Source of the DNA: an uncultured Chloroflexia bacterium
GTDB taxonomy: Bacteria; Chloroflexota; Limnocylindria; Limnocylindrales; CSP1-4
DNA length: 64,000 nucleotides
Direction: 5' to 3'
NCBI GenBank assembly: GCA_963712745.1
Contig: CAVQJC010000005.1
Span: 288,001 to 352,000, forward strand
Positions within the stretch are counted from its first letter, which is position 1. Each line of letters begins with the position of its first letter. Of this stretch, positions 16,677 through 60,786 are shown piece after piece. The translations under genes were made by a program, and so were the position numbers. The notes below the pieces were generated by a model. It was given only the letters and a program-made list of their open reading frames with translations, ran no database searches and was not told where the DNA came from.

Positions 16677-16721
16677 TTCGTAAACAGCAGGTCCTCGGTT
16701 CAAATCCGAGTGTCGGCTCCA
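16677..16721 (+). repeat. att copy 1: tRNA-Thr 3' 45 bp, identical
   Basis: Matches 7896-7940; CGACCCCT/TGACCCCT pair at 16780 and 16792. Confidence 0.95.
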
Positions 16722-16849
16722 CTCTCTCACGCGTGAAACCGGCCGATGTCGGGGTGTGTGCGGCTGCCTGCGCGCGGCCCGACCCCTACGCTGACCCCTG
16801 GAAGTCAAGCTTGCGAATCCTGCGAGTGGCCCTGGAGTTGCACGCTCCC

Positions 16850-17285
16850 GTAGGACCTGCTCCCAACGAATCCATTGCCCCTTTGGCTCCTGCGAATTCG
16901 GCATGTGTGCTGCCTTCGGGTCGCCTGTTGGAGGAACGAGCGGTGACTGGTATGGGTTGTCCGGGGAGCCACCCGCGATTGGATCGTAGGCCTGGAGTAT
17001 GGAGTCAGCAGTCTGGAACGCGCCGTGGCGTCGGAGTTCCCGTTGGCGAATGGAGCTGAAGGACTGCAGCATGTGTTCGGCCTGTGCGCGGCCGAGGCCG
17101 TAAAGCCTGAACAAAGCCGCGTCCAGCTCGGCCCGAGGGCTCTTCGACGGTCGGAATTCCAGATGAATGGCGGCCTGGACCAGCCAAGGGCCAAGGCGAA
17201 GTGGCGGAGCGACTTCGATGTGTACACGAGCTCCGCTACGTACGGTCTGATGAAGTCGCGGAGTGGCTCACCACTCCCGAGATCC
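16850..17285 (-). pseudogene. C-terminal remnant of a large Eco57I-like/type IIG DNA methyltransferase
   Basis: FIRPYVAELVYTS...PPFIWNSDRRRAL then, in a shifted frame, ELDAALFRLYGL...HMLQSFSSIRQRELRRHGAFQTADSILQAYD; recalled family resemblance, no 5' part. Confidence 0.55.
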
Positions 17286-17419
17286 GCTTCTCGGCTCGAG
17301 GCCGAACGGTTCGAACCCTCGCAAAGGCCAGGCACGCAGCGCACCATCTGGCCCGATCCCAGCCTCGAGGAGGTGGCGGTCATCGGCGAACGCGGCGCAG
17401 CGCAGCACCACCGGCTCAC

Positions 17420-19843
17420 CTAGTCGAGCGGCAGGTCGAGTTGCCAGATCTCCATCTCGACGTTGGTCTGCAGGCGCGTGGACTGTGCCTCATCGCCCAT
17501 GCTGACGGTGTAGGCCGAGTCGGTCATGCCCGAGCTTCGGGCGTGAGGGTTGACCCTTGTGAGGTCCACGTCCTGGGTCGCCGAGGCTTCGGACGTCCAT
17601 GCGTCGAGGTGCGCGTCCATCAGGTCCGGCAGGGCCTCGAGGGTCATCGGCTGGGGCTCGGCGTCCATGCGCGTGTCCGACAGGAGCCTGATCCTCGAGT
17701 CGTCGATGATCTCGCCCAGCGTGACCGTCGTGGTTCCCTGAGCGACGAAGCCCAGACCACCGGGTGTCACCGTGGACACCTCCCACTGGGCACCTGCGCC
17801 AACCGGGTCGATCGGCAGTGGGCTGACGAAGTCCTTGCTCATAGCGTCGAACTGACCTGCCGTCAGCAAGCCGCCGAGGGCGTCCGCCGGCGATGACGTC
17901 TCAGCGGAGAGGACCCGACCCCGATCGTCGATCAGCAGCATCTGCCTGGTGCCTACGAACGACGACAGCTGTGACTCCATCTCTTCGAGCTGGTTCGCCG
18001 AGAGCTGCGCCGACCCTTTCGGCACGCTGATGTCGGTATAGAGCAACGCGACCTCCCAGGTGCCAGCGCCGACGGCGGCAGACACCGTGGACGTTACGGC
18101 GAACCGGATGGCCGGAGCCGCCACCCAGGGGGTCCACACCCCGTCAACGAGCGCACGGGTCCCCTGCCGCAGCTCCATGGCAACGTCCTCGACCAGCCCT
18201 TCTGTCCAGGCGTATCGCAGCTGGCGCCTCGGCTCGACACCGGGATCGAGCACCGTGACCTCTGTCACGCCAGCGTCTCCCCGACTCGGCGGTTCGTCGG
18301 CCGGCGCCGGGGAAGCTGGGCCGTCGCCCGGCGACGAAACGGCGACCTCGATCTCCTCGATAGGCGGTAGGGACAGCCAATCCTCGTGGCTCAGATCGTC
18401 GGGCATGCCGACCTGCGCGGAGCGGGTCTGCATCGCGAACGAGGAAGTAGCTCCGTCCTGCACGGCCGTGAAGTCCACCCTCACGCCATCGGTCGTGGAG
18501 GTCGCCTGGGCGAGTCGGGCGATGTCGATGCGGGTCCGGCCGCTGCCCTCGCCGCTCATCGCCATCGAGGTTTCGGCATCGGGCAGCCACTCTGGGGAAG
18601 TGGTCGGCTGCATCGGCGCCACGAACGCCGCCTCGGTGAGGATCCTATGCACGTTGCTGCCCTCGGTCCCGATGAGCGTCTTGGTGTAGGTCGCGATGCC
18701 GGCGGGAGCTTCGCCCGTATCGGTGACGACCTCCTGCCACACGCCGCCCTCGCCGATCGGCGCCGTTGGCAGCCTGGGAGCGAGATGCCTGATATTCCCC
18801 TTGACCAGGTCCCTGACACGATGGAGTCCGGACGTGTCCTCGACGGGGTCGATAACAAGCGATCCGAGCAAGTACCCCTGGTCGTCGAGCCGCTCTACTA
18901 GCCGCAGGCCGACGAGGGTCTGGATGTCTTCGTGAAGGCGTCGCTCGTCGTCGTCGATCGCCTTCGGTGAGATCAGCTCAGCGCCCTCCACCACGGTCTC
19001 GATCAGGGCCGTGCCATTCGCGTCGATCTCCACCACGGTGATCGACAGGTACACACGCAGAGGGATGGCACGCTCGGAAGGAACGATAAGGTCTTCCATG
19101 CGCATGGCCGCCGCCTCCCACATGTCGACCACCATCGAGTCGGTCTGTCCCGTGGTCCAGCGGTATCGGAGCTCTCGCCGCGGGGCCAGACCTGGGTCGA
19201 TGACGTGCGCCGTCACCCTGTAAGTCGGTACCTCCAGGTTGGCCGGTGCACCGCTCAACTCGAACGTGTCGGCGATGGAATGCCAGGAGTCTTCTGGCAG
19301 CTGGTTTCCGTAGCAGGTCAGCCAGAAGATCCCATCCGGCGTGTCCAGATCGAACCCTGAGCTGAAGCCGGGGCCGCCGTCCTCGTCATGGCGCCAATCC
19401 GTTCGTATCGCGTCGAGCCCAGCGACAGCTTCGCGTACCACCGCGAGACGCTCACGTCTCGGACCTCCCGTCGACCCGATCTGCTCCGCTTCAATCCGAT
19501 CCAAGTCGATGTTCCAAGACTCTGGGTACCTACCCACGCTGCAGCTCTGGCCCATCAGGTCGTACGCGATGAGCAGGGCTGGGCTCGAGTCTGGGTCGGC
19601 GGCGGGGTCCAGGTCGCGGATCTCGGTGGTCCACGAAGCCGGGAACGACAGTGCGATGCCAGCCTCGGCAACTTCTACCCGGGTGCTGTCCTCGGACTGG
19701 TCGGTCCCTTCCGCCCCTTTGGCTCCGGAACCACCGATGGCCAGGCACCCGACTGCCACCGCGATAGCGAACGTGCGACGTAGCACCCCCTGCCCTCCTA
19801 GCAGCACTGGCCCAAACATCCGGTTGGAGGGGGCAGTGGTCAA
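17420..19843 (-). CDS. Large exported protein with two homologous domains; start uncertain
   Basis: Signal-like N-terminus; repeats DPGLAPRRELRYRW / DPGVEPRRQLRYAW and LPTAPIGEGGVW / LPIDPVGAGAQW. Confidence 0.75.
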   Translation of the reverse strand: MTTAPSNRMFGPVLLGGQGVLRRTFAIAVAVGCLAIGGSGAKGAEGTDQSEDSTRVEVAEAGIALSFPASWTTEIRDLDPAADPDSSPALLIAYDLMGQSCSVGRYPESWNIDLDRIEAEQIGSTGGPRRERLAVVREAVAGLDAIRTDWRHDEDGGPGFSSGFDLDTPDGIFWLTCYGNQLPEDSWHSIADTFELSGAPANLEVPTYRVTAHVIDPGLAPRRELRYRWTTGQTDSMVVDMWEAAAMRMEDLIVPSERAIPLRVYLSITVVEIDANGTALIETVVEGAELISPKAIDDDERRLHEDIQTLVGLRLVERLDDQGYLLGSLVIDPVEDTSGLHRVRDLVKGNIRHLAPRLPTAPIGEGGVWQEVVTDTGEAPAGIATYTKTLIGTEGSNVHRILTEAAFVAPMQPTTSPEWLPDAETSMAMSGEGSGRTRIDIARLAQATSTTDGVRVDFTAVQDGATSSFAMQTRSAQVGMPDDLSHEDWLSLPPIEEIEVAVSSPGDGPASPAPADEPPSRGDAGVTEVTVLDPGVEPRRQLRYAWTEGLVEDVAMELRQGTRALVDGVWTPWVAAPAIRFAVTSTVSAAVGAGTWEVALLYTDISVPKGSAQLSANQLEEMESQLSSFVGTRQMLLIDDRGRVLSAETSSPADALGGLLTAGQFDAMSKDFVSPLPIDPVGAGAQWEVSTVTPGGLGFVAQGTTTVTLGEIIDDSRIRLLSDTRMDAEPQPMTLEALPDLMDAHLDAWTSEASATQDVDLTRVNPHARSSGMTDSAYTVSMGDEAQSTRLQTNVEMEIWQLDLPLD

Positions 19844-20049
19844 GGGCCGGTCGGCACACGTACTGGGGCCGGCTAGCGACGCTGGTCGGACTCCTGGACC
19901 GAACGAGGGCCTTCCTGGATTCTTCTAGAGCCCCAAGTCCGACAGGCCCGGAACGTCATCGGGCCGGCGACCAGTTGGCCACCGATAGCTCGTCGGCGAG
20001 TTGGCGCAGCGCCGGCTCAGCGTGGCCTCCACAAGTGCGTCGGGTCCGG

Positions 20050-21072
20050 CTACCGCCAGCCAAGCTCCGGGGCCACGTATCTGAGGATGCTCTCGATGGC
20101 GTGGGTGTTGTACTCGACGCCGAGCTGGTTCGGGACCGTCAGGAGGAGAGTGTCAGCCGCCTGGATCGCTGTGTCTCCGGCGAGCTCCTTGGCGAGGACG
20201 TCGGGCTCTGCGGCATACGAACGCCCGAAGATCGCCTTGGTCTGCGCGTCGATGTAGCCGACCTGATCCGACCCTTGGTTGCTCCGCCCGAAATAGACCC
20301 GATCGCGGTCGTCGATGAGCGCGAAGATGCTCCGACTGACCGACACCCGTGGCTCGCGCTCATGCCCGGCCGCGGCCCACGCCTCGTGGAACAGCCGGAT
20401 CTGCTCGGCCTGCAACTCGTGGAACGGCACACCCGCGTCTTCGGTCATCAGCGTCGACGACATCAGGTTCAAGCCCTGCTGGGCCGTCCATTCCGCGGTC
20501 GCGCGCGATCCAGCGCCCCACCAAATCCGGTCGCGGAGCCCGGGCGAGTGTGGCTCGGGGCGGAGCAATCCCGGCGGGTTCGGGAACATCGGGGACGGGT
20601 TCGGCTCGGCGAACCCGACGCCGGAGAGGGCCTCGAGGAAGACCTCGGTGTGCTGGCGGGCCATGTCAGCGTCGGTCCCGCCTTCGGTCGGCACGTAGCC
20701 GAAATGTCGGAAACCATCGATGACCTGCTCGGGTGATCCGCGGCTGATCCCGAGCTGTAGGCGACCTCCCGCGATGAGGTCGGCGGCACCGGAATCTTCG
20801 ACCATGTAGAGCGGGTTCTCGTAGCGCATGTCGATGACGGCCGTCCCGATCTCGATGCGCTTCGTTCGGGCGCCGATCGCCGCCAGCAGCGGAAAGGGCG
20901 ACGCGAGTTGCTGCGCGAAGTGGTGGACGCGGAAATACGCGCCGTCCGCACCGAGGCCCTCGACCGCCTCGGCGAGCTCGATCGACTGGATCAGCGCGTC
21001 CGACGCCGAACGCACCTTCGAGTGGGGCGCTGCCGACCAGTGCCCGAACGAGAGGAACCCCAGCTTCTTCAT
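20050..21072 (-). CDS. LLM-class (luciferase-like) flavin-dependent oxidoreductase
   Basis: GFLSFGHW, YFRVHHFA, IEIGTAVIDMRYENP, GISRGSPE. Confidence 0.92.
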   Translation of the reverse strand: MKKLGFLSFGHWSAAPHSKVRSASDALIQSIELAEAVEGLGADGAYFRVHHFAQQLASPFPLLAAIGARTKRIEIGTAVIDMRYENPLYMVEDSGAADLIAGGRLQLGISRGSPEQVIDGFRHFGYVPTEGGTDADMARQHTEVFLEALSGVGFAEPNPSPMFPNPPGLLRPEPHSPGLRDRIWWGAGSRATAEWTAQQGLNLMSSTLMTEDAGVPFHELQAEQIRLFHEAWAAAGHEREPRVSVSRSIFALIDDRDRVYFGRSNQGSDQVGYIDAQTKAIFGRSYAAEPDVLAKELAGDTAIQAADTLLLTVPNQLGVEYNTHAIESILRYVAPELGWR

Positions 21073-21129
21073 CCAGGGATTCTATGGGTGACGGCCGTGA
21101 CCCGCGCCGGGCTGCTGTCTCGCCGGTCA

Positions 21130-21395
21130 GCGTTGAGTCGCTGGCAGTTGGGACACGGATGTGGCGGTCCGAACCTGGACCGGAAGTGATCCGGATGGGG
21201 ATCGTCTCCTGGCGATTTGCGCGATCGACGTATCAGGCACAGCCGGCTGCGGGACCTGCGTCGCAAAGCTCGAGCCGGCAAGATGACGCCATTTCGACGC
21301 ATCGAGTGCCAGCAACGGGCACGCCACGACAAGCAGGTGACTACCAACCACTACATCTGCTACTCACCGGCCATTGCTTATGGCCAAGCCATCCC
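21130..21395 (+). pseudogene. Probable decayed tyrosine-integrase C-terminus
   Basis: IRHSRLRDLRR...QQRARHDKQVTTNHY resembles box II (RLHDLRH...QERLGH..I.VT...Y); lies directly before arm repeats and an att core. Confidence 0.45.
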
Positions 21396-21398
21396 CGG

Positions 21399-21418
21399 TG
21401 ACCCCTGTGCTGACCCCT
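21399..21418 (+). repeat. Upstream arm-type direct repeat pair TGACCCCT
   Basis: TGACCCCT at 21399 and 21411, 168 bp before att copy 2. Confidence 0.75.
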
Positions 21419-21566
21419 GCGAGAGCGAGCCGCAAGGGCGCGACAGGGCCGTCGTGTGGGATGCCGAGGAGACACGAGCGCCAAGCTCGGCCAGGCACGG
21501 GCGCGTGTGCGGGGATGTGCCGCGCTGGGGCGCCCAGATGGGTGCCTGGCGCATCGGTCCTCGCGA

Positions 21567-21611
21567 TTCGCAAACAGCAGGTCCTCGGTTCAAATCCGAG
21601 TGTCGGCTCCA
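21567..21611 (+). repeat. att copy 2 (loop TTCGCAA)
   Basis: 44/45 match to tRNA 3' end, followed by CTCCCCACGCGTG. Confidence 0.95.
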
Positions 21612-28616: not shown

Positions 28617-28629
28617 CGGTTCCCGCCTC

Positions 28630-32856: not shown

Positions 32857-32901
32857 TTCGTAAACAGCAGGTCCTCGGTTCAAATCCGAGTGTCGGCTCC
32901 A
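32857..32901 (+). repeat. att copy 3, identical
   Basis: Matches 7896-7940; followed by CTCCCCAAGCGAGAAGCGGCCCGTTTCGGGCTGTC. Confidence 0.95.
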
Positions 32902-33140
32902 CTCCCCAAGCGAGAAGCGGCCCGTTTCGGGCTGTCCGTGGGCTCAAGCCGCGGGGCCTGAAACCAGCGATGGATCCCTGAGCCCTCGACTATGCGCGAG
33001 AACCTCGATGTCTTCGGATCCGAACTGGCGCCGCCCGATGTCGAGATCACCGAAGCACCAGATCGCGCGTGCGCAAGAACGGTACTGATGGACGTGCATG
33101 AACGGTATTAGACAGCGTGCGAAAGTGGTATCGTCGCGAC

Positions 33141-34373: not shown

Positions 34374-34395
34374 GCGCGGCGGCACATCCTCGCGA

Positions 34396-34440
34396 TTCGT
34401 AAACAGCAGGTCCTCGGTTCGAATCCGAGTGTCGGCTCCA
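34396..34440 (+). repeat. att copy 4 (T loop TTCGAAT)
   Basis: 44/45 match; TGACCCCT at 34499 and 34511. Confidence 0.95.
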
Positions 34441-34527
34441 CTTCCACAAGCGTGAATTCGCCCGTTTCGGGCTGGTCCTTGGTGGAAGCGGCAGGGCCTG
34501 ACCCCTGCGTTGACCCCTGCGTAACCC

Positions 34528-34590
34528 GTCAATCTGGCATTGACTTTGACGGTTTAGAACCGATACTGCCATCCAAGGCGTCAGAGTCAA
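34528..34590 (+). promoter_or_regulatory. fic promoter region with inverted repeats
   Basis: TTGACTTTGACG (34540-34551) / CGTCAGAGTCAA (34579-34590), 11 of 12 complementary; GTCAAT-N5-ATTGAC at 34528-34544. Confidence 0.55.
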
Positions 34591-39410: not shown

Positions 39411-39425
39411 CCCTGCTCCTCGCGT

Positions 39426-39470
39426 TTCGTAGACAGCAGGTCCTCGGTTCAAATCCGAGTGTCGGCTCCA
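39426..39470 (+). repeat. att copy 6 (loop TTCGTAG)
   Basis: 44/45 match; TGACCCCT at 39528 and 39540. Confidence 0.95.
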
Positions 39471-39872
39471 CTCCCCACGCGTGAAACGGGCCGTTTCGGG
39501 CTGTCTGCCCGCCGAGACCGAGGCTCCTGACCCCTGCGCTGACCCCTACGGGCGCTGCCTGCTCGCGCCTGCGCCACCCGGCGAGGAGATGCTCCTGGAC
39601 TGGCGTCGCCGACGCTCGCCGAGTGCGTCGAGGACGATGGCAGGTGTCGCTCACGACCCGACGGCTCGTGAGCGACTTGGGTTGACGATTTCTTGGACGA
39701 CTGCTGCTCAACGGGTTCTCGCACATACTGATTTCGGGATAATCGGCGACGTCGGCCACCGCGAGCGAAGCACCATCGATTTGAAGGGCTCGCCAGTCGC
39801 GTCGGACCCGGCAGCGGCCAACCAACCCATGATCTAGCGACCTCCAACGCTCGGTTCCGCGGTGCCCGCCCA

Positions 39873-45057: not shown

Positions 45058-45062
45058 GCTCG

Positions 45063-47437: not shown

Positions 47438-47449
47438 GAGGCCGACGTC

Positions 47450-48265: not shown

Positions 48266-48320
48266 TCGCTCCGGTCCAAGCCGCGTAGCCGATCGAGACA
48301 GACGAGATTCGTGGGGAGGT

Positions 48321-48827
48321 ATGAAGAAGATGGATCCGGGCGTCCTGCGGTACGAGGACCTGCATGTCGGTCTGGGGTTCGAAAGCCCAACGCGGACCGT
48401 CACCGAGACGGACGTGGTCATGTTCGCCGCCATGACGGGCGACTACTCCGAGCTGCACACGAGCGAGGCGTTCGCCCGGAAGACCCAGTACGGCCGCCGT
48501 GTCGCGCACGGGCTCCTGGGGTTGGCAATCACGCATGGACTGATGTGGCCACGCACCAATGCCCTGCGGGATATCGCCATCGCGTTCCTGGGGATCTCGG
48601 ACTGGCGCTTTCGCGGGCCGATCTTCCTCGGCGACACGGTCCACGTCGTCTATCGGATCGTCGAGATGCGCGACAGCCGCACGTACCCGGATCAGGCCAT
48701 CGTGACGTTCGAGGTGGAGCTCCGGAACGAGGGTGGCGAAGTACTGCAGCAGGGACGGAAAGTGCTCCTTGTCTCGAAGGTCCCGCTCGCGGCGGCGGCG
48801 AGTCACGGTGCGAGCGAGACGGCCTGA
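48321..48827 (+). CDS. MaoC-like (R)-specific acyl-CoA dehydratase
   Basis: RTVTETDV..FA..TGD...H, RVAHGLL, F..PIFLGDT. Confidence 0.88.
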   Translation: MKKMDPGVLRYEDLHVGLGFESPTRTVTETDVVMFAAMTGDYSELHTSEAFARKTQYGRRVAHGLLGLAITHGLMWPRTNALRDIAIAFLGISDWRFRGPIFLGDTVHVVYRIVEMRDSRTYPDQAIVTFEVELRNEGGEVLQQGRKVLLVSKVPLAAAASHGASETA

Positions 48828-48828
48828 C

Positions 48829-50112: not shown

Positions 50113-51383
50113 CGGCACCCGCAGGGCGGAACGTTCGCCCCACGAAAGAGCCAGCCCAAGATGTCACGGACAGCTACCCGCCGATGTTTCCTGGTGGCAA
50201 CCGCATCGGACCGGAAGAGGAAGAGGCCGTTCTGCGAGTCGTTCGCTCCAAGCGCCTCTTCCGATACTACGGGACCGTCGATGGGCCCTCGGAAGTCGAG
50301 GCCTTCGAGCTCGCCCTCGCTGAGCTCCTGTCGAGCCATCACGCGCTCGCGGTCGGCTCCGGGACACTGGCCCTGATGACGGCCCTCGCGGCGGCAGGGA
50401 TCGGGCATGGTGACCACGTCATCGTGCCTGCGTACACATGGGTGTCCACAGCAGCCGCGGCGCTCGCGATCGGTGCTATCCCGGTCATCGCCGAGGTAGA
50501 CGAGACTCTGACCCTCGACGTCGAGGATGCGGAGCGTCGCATCACCGCTCGGACGAAGGCGATCGTCCCGGTGCACATGCGAGGAGCGCCAGCAGACATG
50601 GAAGGTGTCCGCCATGTCGCGGACCGGCACGGTCTCGTCGTGGTCGAGGACGCCGCGCAGGCAATCGGCGGTTCCTACAGGGGAAGACGCCTGGGCACGA
50701 TCGGCGATCTCGGCTGCTTCAGCCTGCAGTACAACAAGATCATCACCAGCGGTGAGGGTGGCGTGGTCGTGACTGATGATCCGCTACTTCATGATCGGGC
50801 GTTGATGTACCACGACGTGGCCGCCACTCAGCGCAAGCCCATGGGTGACTCACCCGAGTTCTTCGGTGTCGTATGCCGGATGTCCGAGCTTCAGGGCGCG
50901 GTCGCCGCAGTCCAGTTGCGACGGATGGACGGCATCATCGCGGACTGCCGAGCCAACCGCGCACGGATCGTCGACGCGGTCGGCGATACCGCGCGCAATC
51001 ACGGCTTCCGGCTGCGTGCATGTCACGATGATGAGGGCGATACGGGCATTGCCCTCATCCTCCTGGGCCTCGACCCTAGTCGGGCCAGCGCGGTCGCGAC
51101 CGCGCTCCGATCGTCGGGGGTCCCAGCGCGAGTCCTGCTCGACCCAAACCGGCGCGACCTCCACGTTGCGAGCCACTGGACCCCGATCCTGAAGAAGCGC
51201 GACTGGGCGGGAGCGATGGCGCGCGCCGACGACGACTGGGACGTCAAGTACTCACCTGACTGTTGGGCGAGGACCACCCACTTGCTCAGCCGATCAATTC
51301 ACATCGACGTGAGTCCTGACTTGACGGATGCCCATATCGAGAGCATGGGCCAGTCCATCAACCACGCGTTGACGCGCCACTGA
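50109..51383 (+). CDS. DegT/DnrJ/EryC1/StrS family PLP aminotransferase
   Basis: SGTLAL, VHMRG, EDAAQA, FSLQYNKIITSGEGG. Confidence 0.9.
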   Translation: MTAPAGRNVRPTKEPAQDVTDSYPPMFPGGNRIGPEEEEAVLRVVRSKRLFRYYGTVDGPSEVEAFELALAELLSSHHALAVGSGTLALMTALAAAGIGHGDHVIVPAYTWVSTAAAALAIGAIPVIAEVDETLTLDVEDAERRITARTKAIVPVHMRGAPADMEGVRHVADRHGLVVVEDAAQAIGGSYRGRRLGTIGDLGCFSLQYNKIITSGEGGVVVTDDPLLHDRALMYHDVAATQRKPMGDSPEFFGVVCRMSELQGAVAAVQLRRMDGIIADCRANRARIVDAVGDTARNHGFRLRACHDDEGDTGIALILLGLDPSRASAVATALRSSGVPARVLLDPNRRDLHVASHWTPILKKRDWAGAMARADDDWDVKYSPDCWARTTHLLSRSIHIDVSPDLTDAHIESMGQSINHALTRH

Positions 51384-51399
51384 GGGATGGCCAAGCACC

Positions 51400-51449
51400 T
51401 TGACAGTCCAGTCGAGCGTGGCATAGTAGCAAGGTGTAACGCTGTTACA
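51400..51449 (+). promoter_or_regulatory. Sigma70-type promoter plus operator 3
   Basis: TTGACA-16-CATAGT followed by TGTAACGCTGTTACA at 51435-51449. Confidence 0.7.
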
Positions 51450-51540
51450 CTCATCTGGCGACAGAGGAAGCCATGCGGAGTGAGGCCGAAAGGACCCGCT
51501 CTGGGGGATTCGGACTCGCGCACATGACGAGGGCATCGGA

Positions 51541-52419
51541 TTGCAGTCGAGCGGACGAAGCACGCCGCCCCTGAGCGGCGGCGCTCCAGGCAAGGCCGTC
51601 GCGGGCGAGGATGCGGGCCCGCCCGCGTTGGTGGCCAATCGGTCGCTCACGAACAGGCGCATCCGTCGGATCCTGACAGCAATCGGTCCGCCGGCGATCA
51701 CGTTTGGACTGTTGATCGCCGCATGGTGGTTCCTGGTTGCCTACTTCGAAGTGCCGGTGTACCTGGTTCCGTCACCGGAGCTGGTCCTGCCCGCCCTGTT
51801 CGAGTACTGGCCGGACCTTTGGGAGAACACACAGTTCACTGTTACGGCCGTCCTCCTCGGATTTGGTTTCAGCATCGTCACTGCGATCCCGATGGGTCTC
51901 GCCATCGCGGTGTCGCGCACGACCAAGCAGGCTGCCTATCCGGTCCTCGTATTCATCCAGCTCATCCCCAAGATCGCTATCGCGCCACTCTTCGTCGTCT
52001 GGTTCGGCTTCGCTCTCGAATCCAAGGTGATGCTCACGACGCTGCTTACGTTCTTTCCGCTGCTTCTGGCGAGCATCGCCGGGTTCCAGGCGCTCGATGA
52101 TCGCGTCCTGTACCTCACTCGAACGATGGGGGCGTCGACGTGGCAGACGTTCCGCTTCGTTCGACTGCCGAGTGCACTTCCGGTCATCTTCTCGGGTTTG
52201 AAGGTCTCGGCAACCATCGCGGTCACGGCAGCGATCGTGGCTGAGTTCGTCGGCTCCAACAATGGCCTCGGCTATCGCCTGCTCGTCGCGAGTCAGTACC
52301 TCGACACCCCGCTGATCTTCGCAATCCTGCTGCTGATGACGATCATCGGACTTGGACTCAACTACATCGTCGAGATCGTCGAGTACTTCGTCCTGCCCTG
52401 GCGGCGGGTTTCTTCCTGA
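51541..52419 (+). CDS. ABC permease, SsuC/TauC (NitT/TauT) family; start uncertain
   Basis: PKIAIAPLFVVWFG, LPSALPVIFSGLK, AEFVGSNNGLG. Confidence 0.88.
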   Translation: MQSSGRSTPPLSGGAPGKAVAGEDAGPPALVANRSLTNRRIRRILTAIGPPAITFGLLIAAWWFLVAYFEVPVYLVPSPELVLPALFEYWPDLWENTQFTVTAVLLGFGFSIVTAIPMGLAIAVSRTTKQAAYPVLVFIQLIPKIAIAPLFVVWFGFALESKVMLTTLLTFFPLLLASIAGFQALDDRVLYLTRTMGASTWQTFRFVRLPSALPVIFSGLKVSATIAVTAAIVAEFVGSNNGLGYRLLVASQYLDTPLIFAILLLMTIIGLGLNYIVEIVEYFVLPWRRVSS

Positions 52420-52548
52420 CGCAGAGATCCACGAGGAGGTGGCGATGGCCCAACGTACTAGACGCTGATGGCCTGCACATAAGCGTACGGCTATCCGGGA
52501 TAGGTGACCGCACAACAGGCGGTCACGGAGAAGGAGGAAAGAAAAGGG

Positions 52549-53625
52549 ATGGAAATGACGAATCGGCGCAAGATCCGAGCCGGTCTGGCGCTGCTCGTGG
52601 CGGTCCCTGTGGCTGCCGCGTTCAGCGCTCCATCGGCAATGGCGCAGGAGGCCGAGTCAACGGCGTGTGTGCCGACCGACCCCGCCACGCCCATCAGCTT
52701 CCAGCTCAACTTCACGGCGGGTGGCTACAACGCTCCATTCGCGCTCGCCGAGCTTGAGGGGTACTACGACGACGTCGGCCTCAACGTGGATATCGTCAAG
52801 GGTCAGGGTTCAGGAACCACGGCTCGGCTTGTCGCATCCGGACAGGCTGGTTTGGCCTATGCGGACGCCTCTGCGGTAGCGCAGGTCATCGCCCAGGGCG
52901 CCGACATCAAGATCCTCTCGACCATCTACCAGTCGAGTCCCAATGCCGTCAACGCGCTTGCGGAGACGGGGATCGAATCGGTCGCGGACCTGCGCGGCAA
53001 GAAGCTCGGGGAGCCTACGGGTGAGGCCTCCAGTGCGATGTTCCCACTCCTGCTCGAGGCCAACGGCCTTACCAGGGACGACCTGGAAGTCATCCCCATG
53101 CCGGGCACGTCGCTCGTCGGCGCACTGACGCAGGGGCAGGTGGACGCGGTCCTTGGATCGACCGAGGGGTACAACCTCGTGCTCGAAGAGCAGGGGTTCG
53201 AGGTCACAGTCCTTCCATACGCTGAGTGGGGCGTCCCGACCGTCAGCACCTCGGTCATCGCCTCGGGACGCTTTCTCGAGGAGAATGCCAACGCAGTCCG
53301 CTGCTTCATCGAGGCCAGCCTCAAGGGATGGGACGAAGCGATCAAGCGACCGGATGATGCGATCGCGGCGCTCGTGGAGTACTTCCCCTACGACACCAGG
53401 CCGGAACTGAACAAGCGGCAGCTCGAGTCGGCCATCGACCTCGTCTGTGCCAACGACGCTCAGTTCGTCGGCAAGGCTGAACCTGCGGCCTGGGACACTT
53501 CGGTCCAGATCTGGCAGGACTTCTTCGGTCTCTCGCCAGATGTCCCGGCAACCGACTACTACACGTATGACTTCCTTCCGGACACGCTACCGACATCGTG
53601 CCCGCTGGAGCAGCCAGCCGAATAA
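52549..53625 (+). CDS. NMT1/THI5-like ABC substrate-binding protein
   Basis: Signal peptide, GYYDDVGLNVDI..GQGS, DLRGKKLG. Confidence 0.85.
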   Translation: MEMTNRRKIRAGLALLVAVPVAAAFSAPSAMAQEAESTACVPTDPATPISFQLNFTAGGYNAPFALAELEGYYDDVGLNVDIVKGQGSGTTARLVASGQAGLAYADASAVAQVIAQGADIKILSTIYQSSPNAVNALAETGIESVADLRGKKLGEPTGEASSAMFPLLLEANGLTRDDLEVIPMPGTSLVGALTQGQVDAVLGSTEGYNLVLEEQGFEVTVLPYAEWGVPTVSTSVIASGRFLEENANAVRCFIEASLKGWDEAIKRPDDAIAALVEYFPYDTRPELNKRQLESAIDLVCANDAQFVGKAEPAAWDTSVQIWQDFFGLSPDVPATDYYTYDFLPDTLPTSCPLEQPAE

Positions 53626-53657
53626 CCATCAACCAGGCAGACGTGTGGGGTGAGACG

Positions 53658-54500
53658 GTGACATCAGGGACGAACGGGCGCGGGCAAGCTGGACAACGTG
53701 GGACGTCCATCGACATCGATGGCGCCACGATGGTCTTCAATGCAGACGCCGCCCCGTTCCAGGCCCTCACCGAGATCACACTCAGCGTCAAGCCTGGTGA
53801 GTTCGTTAGCGTGGTGGGGCCGAGCGGCTGCGGCAAGAGCACTCTGATGCTCCTGACCGCCGGGCTGCTTCGGCCTACCACGGGCGAGATCCGTGTCGCA
53901 GACAAGCGACTGGAATCACCCCTGACCGATGTCGGGATCGTCTTCCAGGACGATCTGCTGCTCGAATTCCGCACGGCCGAGAACAACATCCTTCTCCAGG
54001 GCCAGGTCCGGAAGCTCGACATGGACAGGATCCGCGCGCGCACGTCACAGCTCATGGGTCAGCTCGGTGTGGCGCAGGCAGCCGATCGGTATCCGAAGCA
54101 GCTCTCCGGCGGAATGCGCCAACGCGTCGCGATCGCTCGTGCGTTGGTGCATGATCCCTCCCTCCTGCTCATGGACGAACCGTTTGGCGCACTCGATGCG
54201 CTGACACGATTGCAGGTCCGCCATGACCTCGAACAGTTGTGGATGCGTGAACGGCCGACCGTCCTGTTCATCACCCACAGCGTGGAGGAGGCAGTCGGAC
54301 TGTCGGATCGGGTAGTCGTCTTCTCACCTTCTCCAGGTCGCATCGTGGAAGAGGTCATCATCGACCTGCCTCGCCCGCGGCCATTGGCGCTCGGTGAGAC
54401 GAAGGAACTCGCCGACCGTGCCGACGGCATCTATCGGACCTTCGAGGAGATGGGGGTTCTGTCCGAGGAAGATCTGCCCGGCGAAACCAGGTCCCTTTAG
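53658..54500 (+). CDS. ABC ATP-binding protein, SsuB/TauB family; start uncertain
   Basis: GPSGCGKST, LSGGMRQR, MDEPFGALD, ITHSVEEAV. Confidence 0.9.
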   Translation: MTSGTNGRGQAGQRGTSIDIDGATMVFNADAAPFQALTEITLSVKPGEFVSVVGPSGCGKSTLMLLTAGLLRPTTGEIRVADKRLESPLTDVGIVFQDDLLLEFRTAENNILLQGQVRKLDMDRIRARTSQLMGQLGVAQAADRYPKQLSGGMRQRVAIARALVHDPSLLLMDEPFGALDALTRLQVRHDLEQLWMRERPTVLFITHSVEEAVGLSDRVVVFSPSPGRIVEEVIIDLPRPRPLALGETKELADRADGIYRTFEEMGVLSEEDLPGETRSL

Positions 54501-54527
54501 GGCTGACGCCCGTCCGCCGCCGCCGAC

Positions 54528-54950
54528 GTGAGGAGCCTCATCCCCGGCAGCAGCGCCACCACCCTCGCCTTCGGTGCGGTGTACTTCATCTGGGGCTCCA
54601 CGTACCTGGCCATCCGATTCGGGCTCGACAGCTTCCCACCCTTCATCCTCAACGGACTGCGCTATTCCCTGGCAGGGCTTGCGATGTTCCTCGTGCTCAT
54701 GGCGCTGGGGACACCGCTCCCGACCCGACGACAGTGGTGGAACATCGCCCGCGTCGCGGCACTCATGATGGTCGGCGGGGCAGGCCTCGTGACTGTCGCA
54801 CAGGATGTCGGTGTCGGCTCCGGACTCGCTGCCACAGCGGTGGCGATGATCCCGGTGTGGGCGGCCCTCGTCTCTGGCTTCCTGGGGATCTGGCCCCGTC
54901 GCGTCGAGTGGGTGGGACTCGCCGTCGGATTGCTCGGAGTCGCCCTGCTT
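54528..54950 (+). pseudogene. EamA/YedA-type DMT transporter, 3'-truncated
   Basis: VYFIWGSTYLAIRF...; only the first EamA repeat precedes the IS256 junction. Confidence 0.8.
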
Positions 54951-55609
54951 GCCCTCCTTCGGTCCCTCGGGACGGACCGGCAGGTAGATGGCGTCGAGCA
55001 TGAGTGCGAGCAGTCGCACCTCGCCGAGGCTGCGGGCCCGAAAGGCCCGGTAGCGGTCGCGCAGCTCCCGGCAGATGGTCGAGACGGTCGTGCGGCTGAT
55101 GTGGCCGAGGCCGGCTTCGGCCGCGAGGGACTCGATGTCACGATCCGACAGGCCTCGGACGTAGGCCCCGATGACGAGGGCTTCGAGGGGCCGGGTGCGC
55201 ACGATGGCCTTGGTGTCGGGGATGGTGGCGCTCACGAAGCGGGTGAGGCTGTCGCGCACCTGGGGCATGGCCACGCTGATCTCGCCCTCGGCGGTCTGGA
55301 CCCGGCGGGGCCGGGTGCCGTTGCGGGAGCCGGTCGCCTCGGGTGCCCGTTCGTAGCGGACCCGACCGAGGAAGGCGGTCACCTCCTCCTCGACCGCCCG
55401 CTGCAGCACCAGCTGCGCTCCCAGGCGACCGAGCTCACCGACGCGATCGGCATCGTCGAGCCCTCCGAGGAGCACCTCCTCGATGGCTGCCTCGATCTTG
55501 GCACTCGGGGCTATCCTTCGTTCCACGGCGTAGTCCTCCTTGGCGAACTTCCAGGTCCGCTTCGGAGCCTATGCCGTCTCTACTTTTCCAGCGATCTCAG
55601 GACGCCACC
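54951..55609 (-). mobile_element. Truncated IS256-family element (transposase from GTG 55526, about 190 codons)
   Basis: RNGTRPRRVQTAEGEI, AYVRGLSDRDI, ISRTTVS, LMLDAIYL; candidate terminal IR GGTGGCGTCCTGAGATCGCTGGAAAA at 55609. Confidence 0.85.
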
Positions 55610-55883
55610 GGAAGGCACTGCCGTGGTACAGCTTTTCGCAGGATCTTCCCAGGGGGACTGAGGCTACCGTCGGGACTCCACTAGGCTTCCTCGCGTTGTC
55701 GTGGATGGACATCGGACGCAACCTCTTGAGCCCGATCAGCAGATCAGATGTGGCTCGGGCGAGATCACGAGGGTCGGATCGAACGCCTGACGGTCTTCGT
55801 TGGTTCCCCGGCGCACTCTGAGCGGGAGGTTCTTGACGACTGAAGCCCCGGCCCTCTCCGACGCACACGGCACGTACCTCTTG

Positions 55884-55928
55884 TTCGTAAACAGCAGGTC
55901 CTCGGTTCAAATCCGAGTGTCGGCTCCA
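55884..55928 (+). repeat. att copy 7, identical
   Basis: Matches 7896-7940; TGACCCCT at 55986 and 55998. Confidence 0.95.
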
Positions 55929-56340
55929 CTCCCCACGCGTGAAACGGGCCGTTTCGGGCTGTCCCTGGCCGGAGTCAGCAGAGTCTGACCCCTGATGTGA
56001 CCCCTGAGAACACCCGCCAATGTGACCAACTCAGGTAATCACTACCAAGGGTCCCGATCCTGAATTGGCTAGCGGCGTGCGGACCACCTTGACGAGGATC
56101 TCATCGATGCTCGCGACCAGTTCCGTGACCGACAGGAGGCTGCCGTGCTGAGCGGCCTGGCGGCGGAATCTTCGGTTGATCTCAACACCAAGCCGCTAGC
56201 TGGCGACAGGAGAAACCAGGGCGGCAACCAAGCGTGAACTCAAGCTGGTTCAGCGGTCACACGCTTCGTCACACGGCCGGTCGTCAAGGTACGACCCATC
56301 GAGCGCATCCCCGACGCCCGACCGACCGGAGACAGATCGA

Positions 56341-56553
56341 ATGACCGTCACACAGCGAACCGCAGAGCAGCCGGCCCAGCCGGCCCTCACCAACCCACCC
56401 TTGACGCGGCTGCTCGCCGCCACCCGCCGACGCGCGGCGAGCGTTCGTGCTGCCTACGCACAGATCATCATCCGCGGACAGCTTGGGCCAGTCGTGGGCC
56501 AGCGTGATCACCGTCGACCCGAGCCTCCGTTCTCCGGCCCTCGCTTCTACTGA
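56341..56553 (+). CDS. Small hypothetical protein
   Basis: 70-aa ORF with GGAG upstream, directly before the BTAD gene. Confidence 0.4.
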   Translation: MTVTQRTAEQPAQPALTNPPLTRLLAATRRRAASVRAAYAQIIIRGQLGPVVGQRDHRRPEPPFSGPRFY

Positions 56554-56594
56554 GCCTTGTGTCAGGGTCCGATCACGGTCAGGATGTCCAGCCT

Positions 56595-58415
56595 ATGAGT
56601 CTCCAGATCGAACTGCTCGGCGCGCCACGTGTGGCCGTGAGCGGCAACGAGTCGGTACCGCCAAGAGGTCGCAAGGCGTGGGCGCTGCTGGCCTACCTGT
56701 TGTTGACCTCGCGGCCGCAGCCACGGGAGCGGCTCGCCACGCTGCTGTTCGATGAGGCCGCAGATCCGCTGGGTGCGTTGCGCTGGAACCTGGCGCAACT
56801 TCGACGCACGCTCGGCGATCGCGTCGAAGTCGGTGGCGAGCCCCTGACCATCCGCCTGCCGCAGGGCAGCGTCATCGACACCGAAGTCCTCGCCCATGGC
56901 GACTGGACCACGGCAGTCGAGGTCACGGGCCTGGGCCACGAGCTGCTCGAGGGCATCGATCTGCCCGGCAACGCCGCATTCGAGACATGGCTGCTGGCCG
57001 AGCGCCGCCGTTTCGCCGGCATCAGTGCATCGATCCTGCGCGAGGCGGCGACCGCACGACTTGCGGCAGGTGAGGTGATGCCTGCGGTGGATCTCGCCTC
57101 TCGCCTCGTGGCCATCGAAGATTTCGATGAAGAGGCCCACGCGCTGCTGATCCGCGCCTATGCGGCCTCAGGCGATGTGGAGCGGGCGCGGCAGCAGTCC
57201 GTCAGATCGGCGGCGTATCTGCGAGAAGAGCTCGGCGTCGAGCCCTCCGCGACCCTGGGTCGGGCACTCAGCGGCGCGCTGGCGGCACTGGAGCCAGACA
57301 CCCGAACTGTGCCAAGCGAACGGGGCATCGAGGCACTCATCGAGGCTGGACGTGCAGCCTTCAACGCCGGCGCCACAGATGCCGGCATCCAGACGCTTGC
57401 GCGGGCTACCGATGAGGCGAGGGCCCTCTCGTCGACGCAGCTCCAGGCCCGCGCCCAACTGGCTCACGGTGTGGCCCTGGTGCACACGGGTCGGGGCCGT
57501 GATGGCGAGGGTGCGACGATCTTGCACGCGGCGCTGAGCTCTGCCGTTGCCGCAGGAGATGCGCGTATCGCCAGCGAGGCGTCGCGCGAGCTCGGGTACA
57601 TCGAGTTCCTGCGAGGTCGCTACGACCGTGCCCAGACATGGCTGGAGCGGGCCATCGAGTCAGCACCCGATGAGATCGAGCGCGCTTCGGCGCTTGCCAT
57701 CCTCGGGGCCACCGCATGTGACCGCGGCCGGACGGGCACGGCCATCGAAGCGCTCAGCGAAGCCGCCGCGGTCGGGGCACGAGTACAGAAGCCACGCATC
57801 GAGGCCTGGGCGCGTGCGCTCCTGGGCCGTGCACACCGGCTGCGCGGCGAGCTCGACGAGGCCGCCTCAGAGCTAGACCGTGCCGTCGAGATCTGCCGTG
57901 CCGTGGGCTGGATGTCGTTCCTGGGCATGCCGCAGTCGATGCGCGCGGACGTGCACCTGCTGCGTGGCGAGGTGGGACCAGCATCGGACGACTACGAAGC
58001 GGCCTTCGCACTCGGTTGCCAGATCGGCGATCCTTGCTGGGAGGGACTCGGTGCACGGGGCATCGGCCTGGTCCACTTCGAACGAGGGCGCATCGATGAG
58101 GGCTTCGAGTGGCTCAGCGATGCCGCTGTGCGCTGCGTGCGCACCACCGATGCCTATCTCTGGATCGAGGCGTTCTGTCTCGACACGCTCTGTGCTCGCG
58201 GCCTGGAACACGGCCGCCGCGAAGTCGCCGACTGGGCCGGACGACTCGAGACCCTCGCGGCGCGCACCGATATGCGCGAGATGCTCGTGCGCAGCCAGAT
58301 GCATCGAGCCGCCCTTGGTGTCGTTGATGCTGGGGCGGCGGCACGACTCTTCGCTCGCGATGTCGACAATCCTTCGCTCCTGAGAGAGCTATCCGGGACG
58401 CCAGCGCCCGCGTAG
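56595..58415 (+). CDS. BTAD/SARP-type transcriptional regulator with TPR repeats
   Basis: IELLGAPRV, KAWALLAYL, RERLATLL, FETWLLAER, EELGVEPS, helical TPR C-terminus; no NB-ARC P-loop seen. Confidence 0.85.
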   Translation: MSLQIELLGAPRVAVSGNESVPPRGRKAWALLAYLLLTSRPQPRERLATLLFDEAADPLGALRWNLAQLRRTLGDRVEVGGEPLTIRLPQGSVIDTEVLAHGDWTTAVEVTGLGHELLEGIDLPGNAAFETWLLAERRRFAGISASILREAATARLAAGEVMPAVDLASRLVAIEDFDEEAHALLIRAYAASGDVERARQQSVRSAAYLREELGVEPSATLGRALSGALAALEPDTRTVPSERGIEALIEAGRAAFNAGATDAGIQTLARATDEARALSSTQLQARAQLAHGVALVHTGRGRDGEGATILHAALSSAVAAGDARIASEASRELGYIEFLRGRYDRAQTWLERAIESAPDEIERASALAILGATACDRGRTGTAIEALSEAAAVGARVQKPRIEAWARALLGRAHRLRGELDEAASELDRAVEICRAVGWMSFLGMPQSMRADVHLLRGEVGPASDDYEAAFALGCQIGDPCWEGLGARGIGLVHFERGRIDEGFEWLSDAAVRCVRTTDAYLWIEAFCLDTLCARGLEHGRREVADWAGRLETLAARTDMREMLVRSQMHRAALGVVDAGAAARLFARDVDNPSLLRELSGTPAPA

Positions 58416-58461
58416 GTGTTGTCCGCCGGTGGCAGTCGATGCCCCGGCCTTCCGACGACGA

Positions 58462-58481
58462 TGACCCCTGAGCTGACCCCT
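58462..58481 (+). repeat. Upstream arm-type direct repeat pair TGACCCCT
   Basis: TGACCCCT at 58462 and 58474, 165 bp before att copy 8. Confidence 0.75.
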
Positions 58482-58626
58482 GTCAGAAACAGTGGCCGGA
58501 GAGCCGCAGGGCTCTGGCGGGGGAGCACAAAGCCGAGACTGGCTCCCGCTGGTGCGGGCTGACGTGTGGGGTTCGACGTGCTTCGATATCGCAGTCGGAC
58601 GGGGTGCGGGCCCTCGGTCCTCGCGA

Positions 58627-58671
58627 TTCGTAAACAGCAGGTCCTCGGTTCAAGTCCGAGTGTCGGCTCCA
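58627..58671 (+). repeat. att copy 8 (T loop TTCAAGT)
   Basis: 44/45 match; TGACCCCT at 58730 and 58742. Confidence 0.95.
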
Positions 58672-58824
58672 CTTCCCACCGCGTGAATCGGCACGTTCCG
58701 GGCTGTCCATGGCCAGAAACAGCAGGGCCTGACCCCTGATGTGACCCCTGCCCGACCCGTCGATCCGGGTGCGATCTCGACGGGTCGGGAGCCGACGCTG
58801 CCCGCCAAGATCTCGTCTTCCGCC

Positions 58825-58853
58825 TTGACCGCGATATGTTTCACATCTATGGT
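58825..58853 (+). promoter_or_regulatory. Sigma70-type promoter for a near-leaderless transcript
   Basis: TTGACC-17-TATGGT, 10 nt before ATG 58864. Confidence 0.55.
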
Positions 58854-58863
58854 TGTTAGTGAC

Positions 58864-59598
58864 ATGGTTGTGCAACTGGATGACGGGTCGGCGATCGTCG
58901 GCGTAGGCCAAGCCGCGCACATGCTCAGCCTGCGCCCGAGGTCGGTGCTTCGTCTCATCAACGACGGCGAGTTGCCCGCCCAAAAGGAGTTCGGGCGCTG
59001 GCGCATCCTGCGTGCCGATGTCGAGATCCGTCGTGAGCTCGGCGCCCACGATGGCCGGCGATATGCGCCAGCCGCAGCTTGGGGTCTCATCTTCCTCGGG
59101 AGCGGAGGGCAGGCCCCGTGGCTCGATCGCATCTCCCGATGGCGCATCCGGAAGCAGCTCGCCTCACGACCATGGCCGGGACTGCGGCACGCCCTGGCTG
59201 ATCGTGCCTCCCTGAGCCGCTATGCAGCACACCCCAATTCGGTCGCGCGTCTGCGTGACGAGCCGGACCTGATGCATTCCGGCCTCGGGGCGGCCGAGGC
59301 GTCCGGCGTCGGCGTGATCGGCGCCGGCGACCGGTTCGCGGCATACGTGCCCGACGAGCACCTGCCCGACATCATCGGCCGGAATCATCTGCGCCAAGAC
59401 CCGGCCGGGCTGGTAGCCCTCCGAACGGTCCTGCCCGAAGCCCTTCCGAAGCCACTGCCGCCGGTGGCGCCGCAGGTGGCTATCGCGCTCGACCTGCTCG
59501 AAGACCACGAGCCACGGGCCAGGCAGGTCGGACGCGAACTCCTGGCCATGCTCGAGTCGGAGTACCGGGCGGGTGTCGATGGCCCTGCCCGTGGATGA
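58864..59598 (+). CDS. Excisionase-like HTH protein with AbiEi-like C-terminus (putative type IV antitoxin)
   Basis: VGQAAHMLSL..RSVLRLINDGELPAQK.FGRWRI; C-terminal VAPQVAIALDLLEDHEPRARQVG. Confidence 0.65.
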   Translation: MVVQLDDGSAIVGVGQAAHMLSLRPRSVLRLINDGELPAQKEFGRWRILRADVEIRRELGAHDGRRYAPAAAWGLIFLGSGGQAPWLDRISRWRIRKQLASRPWPGLRHALADRASLSRYAAHPNSVARLRDEPDLMHSGLGAAEASGVGVIGAGDRFAAYVPDEHLPDIIGRNHLRQDPAGLVALRTVLPEALPKPLPPVAPQVAIALDLLEDHEPRARQVGRELLAMLESEYRAGVDGPARG

Positions 59599-60318
59599 CA
59601 CGCCGATGCTGGAGATCGAGTCATGGAGCGATGCCGAGGCGCAGCTCTGGGTGACGCTTCGCGAGGTCTGCGAGCTCTTCAGCGGGCTCCCATGGGTCCT
59701 CGTCGGCGGCCTGATAGTGCGTCTCCTCGAGGCCGAGCACGGGCGCGAGACCCAATTCGCGACGATGGACGTCGACGCCATCATCGACGTTCGAGCGATG
59801 ACCTTGGGCAAGCGAGAGGCCGCCCAGCGGCTCCTCGACCATGGTTTCCAACCCGAACGGCCGGACGGCAAGACCGTCTACGGCTCACGCGGGCCGGCGA
59901 CATCGTCGATGTCCTCCCGCCCGATGGGCTCGGATCGAGAGCAGACATCGTGACGGTCCCACCAGCGTCCACTTTCCGGACGGTCGGGGGGTCGAGAGCG
60001 CTACGGGGTCGACGGCGACTCGCGGTGTCGGTCGACACCAAGCAGTTCGAGGTCCCGGTCCCAGACCTCGCCGGGGCGATCGTCATCAAGGCGCGGGCCG
60101 CGACGAGCGCGACGACGAGCGCAACGAAACACGAGCGCGACCTTGCCCGACTGCTCACGCTCGTCGATCATCCGTACGAGATGCGCGACTCCATGTCCGG
60201 AAAGGAGCGCGGCTACGTGCGGCGGCATCACGCACTCTCCGACCCTTGTCACGCCGCGTGGTCACAAGTGGCGGACGCGGACCTTGGCTCACAGGGCCTC
60301 GCCGTCATCTGCGGCTGA
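59573..60318 (+). CDS. Putative nucleotidyltransferase toxin (AbiEii-like), frameshifted near 59881
   Basis: WVLVGGLIV...TMDVDAII, then in a shifted frame IVDVL...VPVPDLAGAIVIKARA...KHERDLARLL. Confidence 0.65.
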
Positions 60319-60465
60319 CTTCGACGTAGGCGGCCGATGATGGCGATCGACCCGGAGCAGCCACGCGTCAGCATCCGGGGTGGTGTTTGCGACGGATCGA
60401 TGGGAGTGTTTGCGGAAGCTTCACAGGTCTAGCCGCGACGAGTAGCACGCGGCGAAACCAGCCTT

Positions 60466-60510
60466 TTCGTCAACAGCAGGTCCTCGGTTCGGATCCGAGT
60501 GTCGGCTCCA
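60466..60510 (+). repeat. att copy 9 (loop TTCGTCA, T loop TTCGGAT)
   Basis: 42/45 match; single TGACCCCT at 60568. Confidence 0.92.
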
Positions 60511-60786
60511 CTCCCCGAGCATGAAGTGGCCCGTTTCGGGCTGCCTGCAAGCGGAAACGGCAGGGCCTGACCCCTGCGCGGCCAACCGCCAATCAGGCCG
60601 AGCCTATGAGTCGTGGCGGGCCTGGATCAACGAGTCGGGGCCGGTCTGGAGCGAGGTCGCAGGTGACATGCCTGTCCCCTGCCATTGACCGCGAAGCTGA
60701 CTGGTCTCGATCGAAGTCAGGGCGGTGCGGCACGCCGCGCCCCGGTCCCAGAGAGGCGGTCCTCCTACAGCAGGATCGTCGTCGGG

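Follow-up and report, generated by a model that had tools for sequence, protein, structure and literature searches.

The 64,000-nt stretch of DNA analyzed here (the window) spans positions 288,001 to 352,000 of contig CAVQJC010000005.1 (assembly GCA_963712745.1) from an uncultured Chloroflexia bacterium of the Limnocylindrales and has a G+C content of 0.67. Its single tRNA gene, tRNA-Thr(CGT) at 7866-7940 (ARAGORN), lies to the right of ABC transporter and dehydrogenase genes and is followed by an array of genomic islands, every one of which is bounded by copies of the 3' part of this tRNA gene, the att cores. Our subject is a short motif, TGACCCCT, which accompanies these cores as tandem pairs at set distances and probably marks the arm-type sites of a tyrosine integrase. 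A 37-nt pattern taken from the tRNA 3' part matches the window nine times at up to three mismatches, always on the + strand and against an expectation of 0; these matches end at 7940, 16721, 21611, 32901, 34440, 39470, 55928, 58671, and 60510. Besides the intact tRNA, there are eight full copies and two truncated ones starting at 8621 and 16540, and the block of identity covers 45 nt, from the anticodon loop (starting TTCGTAA) to the CCA. The array continues past the window to the contig end, with cores at contig positions 353411, 362249, and 377270 (BLAST), and further copies lie on other contigs (three on C2, at 54-60 kb, and one on C9, at 7.5 kb). Altogether, the assembly holds at least 18 copies of the core, with more than 80 kb of array on one contig (C5), and it probably broke at the array repeats, the pieces landing on C2 and C9.

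Within the window, TGACCCCT is found 15 times against 2.04 expected, a number reached in none of 100 shuffles. Fourteen of these copies lie on the + (tRNA) strand, all in att flanks, the sole exception being a - strand copy at 37922. The motif starts 58-59 nt past the CCA at six of the nine full cores, at precisely the six coordinates listed in a first-pass annotation made from the letters of this DNA (16780, 34499, 39528, 55986, 58730, and 60568), and a second copy follows 12 nt on at five of these six, in agreement with the annotation's view that a pair of 12-bp period is the usual arrangement; past the core that ends at 60510 there is one copy only. The first repeat at 16780 reads CGACCCCT, with the second at 16792. 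No pair follows the cores ending at 7940 or 21611, and the one ending at 32901 is followed by a degenerate remnant only; five modules of the window retain two perfect or near-perfect repeats. Upstream of the cores, pairs at 21399/21411 and 58462/58474 lie at -168 and -165 from the core starts 21567 and 58627, and TCCTCGCG(A/T) stands immediately before the cores, at 21558, 34387, 39417, and 58618, as well as at the truncated copies 8621 and 16540. The annotation had located these upstream features correctly, although the core numbers it attached to them (2, 4, 6, and 8) fit no simple count. We regard the sequence left of the core, TCCTCGCGA, as a candidate core-type (C) site; no clear inverted symmetry between it and the right side of the core was seen. 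About 70 nt before the truncated core at 8621 hold an inverted repeat, and a similar stretch (16470-16571) precedes the truncated core at 16540. The features of the array are listed below, with P' and P denoting predicted arms.

7866..7940, + strand: tRNA-Thr(CGT), intact target, attL side of the array (ARAGORN)
8621..8641, + strand: truncated att core with TCCTCGCGA before it; closes a 0.7-kb VapBC mini-island
16540..16571, + strand: another truncated att core with TCCTCGCGA; preceded by 70 nt similar to those upstream of 8621
16677..16721, + strand: att core copy, anticodon loop to CCA
16722..21566, no strand: island with predicted P' and P pairs and without an integrase; 807-aa unknown protein, luciferase-like monooxygenase
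16780..16799, + strand: predicted P'-arm pair CGACCCCT-N4-TGACCCCT, +59/+71 from the CCA
21399..21418, + strand: predicted P-arm pair TGACCCCT-N4-TGACCCCT, -168/-156 from the core start
21558..21566, + strand: TCCTCGCGA abutting the core on the left, candidate C site
21567..21611, + strand: att core copy, no downstream pair
32857..32901, + strand: att core copy
32959..32978, + strand: degenerate remnant of a predicted P' pair (TGAAACCA..GGATCCCT)
34387..34440, + strand: TCCTCGCGA and att core copy
34499..34518, + strand: predicted P'-arm pair, +59/+71 (34499/34511), after which come a conserved inverted repeat and a SoFic-like gene
39417..39470, + strand: TCCTCGCGT and att core copy
39528..39547, + strand: predicted P'-arm pair, +58/+70 (39528/39540)
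55884..55928, + strand: att core copy
55929..58626, no strand: island with predicted P' and P pairs and without an integrase; BTAD/TPR regulator
55986..56005, + strand: predicted P'-arm pair, +58/+70 (55986/55998)
58462..58481, + strand: predicted P-arm pair, -165/-153 from the core start
58618..58671, + strand: TCCTCGCGA and att core copy
58730..58749, + strand: predicted P'-arm pair, +59/+71 (58730/58742)
60466..60510, + strand: att core copy, two mismatches in the T loop
60568..60575, + strand: single TGACCCCT at +58, second copy lost

Across the 4.2-Mb assembly, 18 of 87 copies of TGACCCCT, each of them in the orientation of the tRNA, lie within 7.3 kb of att flanks, where 0.12 would be expected; a motif equally common away from the cores, which the annotation had named as one result that would overturn its proposal, is not what the genome holds. 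The full pair, TGACCCCT-N4-TGACCCCT, occurs seven times and adjoins a core each time. Alignment of seven modules from this genome gave a mean pairwise identity of 0.81 over the 21-nt pair, 0.49 in the preceding 24 nt, and 0.30 in the following 21 nt. The annotation went too far in letting most copies continue behind the CCA as CACGCGTGAAACGGGCCGTTTC: at up to three mismatches, this stretch is present in two copies only (39476 and 55934), and the other copies are looser variants. Among the assembled sequencing reads, one contig of run X2 lacks 12 nt of the module at 55986, which leaves a one-repeat variant; being a single contig of low depth (2.7), it may be an error.

Eight of 24 genomes of the same genus contain the exact pair and none of 16 genomes of a streamlined sister family does; a control with the reversed pattern gave 0. 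Outside the genome studied here the pair occurs 16 times, 12 times at 57-59 nt past a tRNA-Thr core end and twice at 157-168 nt before a core, with two occurrences left unassigned. Scanning one genome per species for a core end, a spacer of 52-64 nt, and TGACCCCT returned 52 loci, nearly all of them in metagenome-assembled genomes (MAGs) titled Chloroflexota or Candidatus Limnocylindrales, and in 43 of 73 distinct modules an exact copy is followed 12 nt on by another, which the search pattern did not include. A scan of viral contigs for core plus motif found no matches. In one MAG (L062, ~2074-2160), seven tandem 12-bp copies of TGACCCCTGCGC stand past the tRNA and are followed by a 25-residue integrase remnant.

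A Pfam search of 107 open reading frames (ORFs) flanking these modules identified a tyrosine integrase gene convergent to the tRNA in five loci (L042, L045, L046, L067, and L085), and in all five the int frame ends 88-91 nt past the CCA, some 10 nt beyond the second repeat. By tblastn, the cognate integrase or a remnant of it follows the pair directly in 8 of the 52 loci; one of these genes is intact and seven are truncated or frameshifted. Two related genomes hold complete elements, of 16.8 kb in G065 and of 15.7 kb in G067. Each starts with the full tRNA, the pair at +59/+71, and a convergent gene for a 386-aa tyrosine integrase whose stop lies about 10 nt after the pair, and each has, beyond 15-16 kb of genes, a second pair at the far end, at -126/-114 before the attR core and in the same orientation as the first. 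Given this layout, the pair belongs to the element, on both arms and in one direction. Besides its integrase, the G065 element has genes for an HTH_17 excisionase-like protein and a DNA methylase; neither of the two complete elements shows phage genes.

Several other integrase genes came into consideration as partners. A frameshifted, small XerC-like integrase gene (L025 17758-18744, G014:C11) ends 110 nt short of a tRNA-Thr core without a TGACCCCT pair, and was rejected since its homologues are not at tRNA-Thr and have no pair; it may represent a second integrase family using the same tRNA-Thr. Integrases near modules in G016 and G024 were dismissed as either not adjacent or not cognate. One further MAG has an integrase gene (L087, 1984-3204) on the opposite side of tRNA-Thr, directed away from it.

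The complete elements also bear on the possibility that the pair is native sequence behind tRNA-Thr, such as a terminator, a processing signal, or a host-factor site, which would have been duplicated together with the core and play no part in recombination. The pair does stand directly behind the full tRNA in many genomes, and folding of single sequences places a strongly stable, terminator-like hairpin between CCA and pair in some modules. This signal (z < -2) is, however, confined to 12 of 73 modules, and RNAalifold returned no consensus on 58 sequences; we claim no conserved structure in this interval. The flank beyond attR in G065 and G067, which is the displaced original chromosome, has neither pair nor hairpin-like sequence, and both are likewise missing at the tRNA-Thr(CGT) of the sister family. 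Moreover, pairs are also found upstream of cores, on the P arms, and related integrases at other tRNAs have pairs of their own. Taken together, we consider a native signal extremely improbable.

A relative of the integrase was found encoded at 567 metagenome loci. A second test took the integrase alignment rather than the motif as its starting point and covered 80 metagenome loci. In 29 of these, a convergent tRNA, for many different amino acids, lies within 500 nt of the int end; 26 were examined, leaving out three in which the tRNA was far away or several tRNAs were present. Between the tRNA 3' end and the int stop, 25 of the 26 loci contain an exact 8-mer repeated at 10-13 nt, where shuffles predict 0.15. 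The repeat varies by subfamily (TGACAGCA, TGGTAGCAAC, TACTGCAACC, TGACACCA, and others), and one and the same repeat can be common to different tRNA targets (His and Ala; Cys and Asn). The N-terminal domain (N-domain) of the integrase appears to follow the motif in part, which is suggestive and no more: its identity averages 0.58 between proteins with the same motif and 0.38 between proteins with different motifs, and the integrases of L195 and L166 are 85% identical in this domain and 47% in the rest.

The integrase itself belongs to a large family, with 3657 proteins at E <= 1e-20 among the candidates scored. Pfam assigns SAM_3 and Phage_integrase (PF00589, E 5e-25), and the catalytic residues R206, K244, R324, H347, and Y357 are invariant in 35 homologues; this tyrosine recombinase signature was found in the related genomes only. 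Ahead of these domains, about 60 N-terminal residues are conserved, with E8, G9, R14, D16, and W19 invariant in the same homologues, and the AlphaFold model (predicted local distance difference test, pLDDT, 80) shows a beta-beta-beta-alpha unit at residues 11-57. The best structural match is Tn1549 Int, over residues 66-357 (Z 20.8), and alignments with full-length lambda Int chains begin at model residues 1-9 (1z1b_B, Z 16.3, ranges 6..355 and 8..344). By its position and predicted topology, the N-domain is a putative arm-binding domain. The nearest named relatives are mycobacteriophage and Thermus phage integrases at ~33-35% identity, the mycobacteriophage proteins matching at ~33% over 96-98% of the length.

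A number of observations weigh against assigning the pairs to an integrase of this kind. The pattern behind the 52 loci demanded the first TGACCCCT, leaving the second copy and the flanks as the unbiased part of that evidence. The predicted P arm lies at -165/-168 here, as opposed to -126 in the integrase-bearing elements, and only two islands of the window have kept a P-arm pair. Neither the window nor the assembled genome, which is 84.5% complete, contains a cognate integrase, the best match being a 54-residue remnant on another contig, and same-genus homologues (45-55% identity) lie elsewhere than at tRNA-Thr. The co-variation of N-domain and motif draws on 10 same-motif pairs and has counter-examples (L143/L164, N-domain 0.27 and rest 0.43; L145/L128, 0.38 and 0.47). 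Finally, when the N-domain (model pLDDT 66) was searched by itself, its fold matches were generic beta-alpha ones only, and neither the integrase nor its first 72 residues had a hit to an arm-binding family of Pfam.

The lack of a Pfam arm-binding domain would also suit an arrangement in which the repeats are bound by another element-encoded protein, either a regulator or a recombination directionality factor of the HTH_17 excisionase-like type. In lambda-type systems, the excisionase binds to direct repeats arranged in tandem in an att arm, and HTH_17 genes are at hand, one in the G065 element and an HTH_17/AbiEi gene after the pair at 58741. However, most islands with perfect pairs have no HTH_17 gene, the pairs sit on both arms in the same orientation, and in the 25 family loci the pair abuts the int stop whatever else the contig carries. 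The motif groups, too, sometimes follow the N-domain of the integrase better than the rest of the protein. We therefore judge binding by such a protein to be unlikely, if less so than a native signal, and hold that the TGACCCCT pairs are probably arm-type sites of a heterobivalent tyrosine integrase of the lambda, L5, and Tn916 class. In keeping with this, the repeats stand on both sides of the core and differ from it in sequence, at +58/59 for P' and -126 to -168 for P, and all in one orientation. The support comes from the comparison with related genomes and from nothing inside the window, which holds no recombinase gene. It was on the G065 and G067 elements and the 25 of 26 family loci, then, that the annotation's proposal of arm-type sites for one integrase family found its backing. 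Its further argument, that a conserved motif amid divergence reflects selection for recombination, is borne out for the element family and says nothing on the present use of the copies in the window.

We propose that the attP of an intact element would consist, in order, of a P-arm tandem pair ~126-168 nt left of the core, the TCCTCGCGA-like sequence, the core, and a P'-arm tandem pair 58-59 nt past the CCA, with the int stop ~10 nt further on and int transcribed toward the tRNA. Each integrase protomer would place its N-terminal domain on one repeat of 8-9 bp and its core-binding and catalytic domains on the core, and the four arm sites could serve one tetramer. The arms would fold back onto the core, and strand exchange may take place in the region of the anticodon loop. 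Seen in this light, the window is a tandem accretion array behind the tRNA and the product of many integrations. Because each integration into the intact tRNA would push the older island outward, every core would be followed by the P' arm of the next island. All islands of the window have lost the integrase gene or never carried it.

A Pfam search of the 51 ORFs between the cores identified cargo genes and no recombinase. The cargo comprises VapBC, NrfD/Fe-S proteins, a two-component system, a luciferase-like monooxygenase, ABC transporters, a SpoIIE phosphatase with partner-switching proteins, a DUF4143 ATPase, Fic, a sigma factor, a 16-kb metabolic block, a BTAD/TPR regulator, an HTH_17/AbiEi protein, and one Mutator-transposase fragment; islands reach up to 16 kb in length. 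The VapC/VapB genes occupy the 0.7 kb between the tRNA and the truncated core at 8621 (7965-8641). PADLOC assigns the DUF4143 ATPase (33117-34373) to PDC-S01 (E 8e-100) and the Fic protein (34610-35821) to SoFic (E 1e-70), and had no match for 10 of 12 island proteins tried; the two genes occupy small islands consisting mainly of candidate defense genes, and the order DUF4143, core, P' pair, and Fic is repeated at a locus of another genome (L076). Between the P' pair and the Fic gene lies a conserved 40-nt stretch (34519-34560) with the inverted repeat CCGTCAA..TTGACGG, which also occurs in L009, L013, L016, L017, and L019 and may be the operator of this gene. Toward the right end of the 16-kb metabolic island, the Mutator-family transposase fragment (54324-55526, - strand) and an EamA-like ORF overlap.

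Searches for PF00589, PF00239, and PF07508 had no match in the 51 ORFs or in six-frame translations of the array, and tblastn with the cognate integrase found neither a gene nor a remnant in the window. Given that a six-frame search detected no tyrosine recombinase on the contig of the window, the array is not an integron, in which intI stands beside a row of attC sites. Its islands are flanked by attL/attR-type sites, and integration and transfer genes were not found in them; since the att sites are kept and the integration genes are absent, we regard the islands as resembling cis-mobilizable elements (CIMEs).

The copies in the window may accordingly be inactive leftovers. The arm sites could have been functional once, every copy in the window now being an inert scar, a distinction that concerns present activity and not the identity of the motif. 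The window and the assembly lack an integrase, modules have decayed at 32959, at 60568, and among the copies beyond the window, and seven of the eight cognate integrases beside a pair are broken. On the other hand, five modules retain two perfect or near-perfect repeats and two islands both arms, the genome is only 84.5% complete, and the integrase-less SoFic island with its P' arm occupies different ranks in different genomes, being located beside the tRNA in one and several ranks out in the present one. On balance, we lean slightly toward inert scars. Twenty sequencing runs hold parts of 55000-61000, and the contigs of four runs over 45000-64000 contain no clean excision junction, although these contigs are short and most joint sides measure 20-23 nt. 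The single joint that links two modules (55963 and 58742, separated by 36 other letters) is a module variant and not an excision.

More speculatively, the tRNA-Thr(CGT) locus could be an open accretion platform, at which islands with complete att arms and no integrase would be taken up, released, and rearranged in trans, using the integrase that transient elements supply. We give this idea a rather low probability, though a higher one than the binding of the repeats by another protein. If true, mobilization in trans would account for the persistence of perfect arm sites without an integrase and for the differing ranks of the SoFic island, and the array would be a large-unit, tRNA-anchored counterpart of the integron, many of its islands being units of a single defense or toxin-antitoxin gene, such as SoFic, PDC-S01, VapBC, and AbiEi.

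Whatever the present state of the array, it illustrates the build-up of defense and accessory genes at one tRNA gene, and the related elements provide an attP layout, with core, both arms, and integrase, for an uncultured lineage; the one full-text literature search made on this, for Limnocylindria and integrase, found no evidently related paper. The set of integrases, each with its own repeat pair of 8-11 bp, offers material for studying how N-terminal domains read arm sites and for integration vectors in Chloroflexota.

Among known systems, phage lambda, the paradigm of the heterobivalent tyrosine recombinases, has a three-domain integrase, an int 3' end that abuts the P' arm, and tandem direct arm-type repeats that differ from the core and lie on both of its sides, all of which resembles the layout proposed here; a description of the lambda layout is given in bioRxiv 10.1101/2023.11.06.565760. 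Lambda differs in having five arm sites instead of the predicted two plus two and another repeat sequence, and the target here is a tRNA. [quoted passage not shown] The attP of phage mv4, with an integrase of the Tn916 subgroup, is reported to span ~200-300 bp and to have on each arm one pair of adjacent 11-bp sites in direct repeat (bioRxiv 10.1101/2023.11.06.565760), an arrangement of two pairs like the one here. Its 11-bp sites were tested by binding assays, whereas the conserved unit predicted here measures 8-9 bp and recurs with a 12-bp period.

The array as a whole is best compared with CIMEs and accretion systems, such as those of the ICESt1 type in Streptococcus and PAISt in Streptomyces. 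According to PMC5704250, CIMEs are elements whose genes for integration and transfer have been lost while attL and attR remain, and they stand in tandem at the 3' end of the target gene; the islands here resemble them in this. The scale is larger in our case, with at least 18 cores in the assembly and one contig holding more than 80 kb of array, the assembly contains no helper element, and cis-mobilization is putative. Integron cassette arrays are comparable by analogy only, in that they, too, form a row of promoter-poor cargo units, some for defense, between recombination sites. They differ in having an integrase beside the array and folded attC sites, in place of which the locus described here has attP/attB-type sites with identity to a tRNA, and islands of up to 16 kb.

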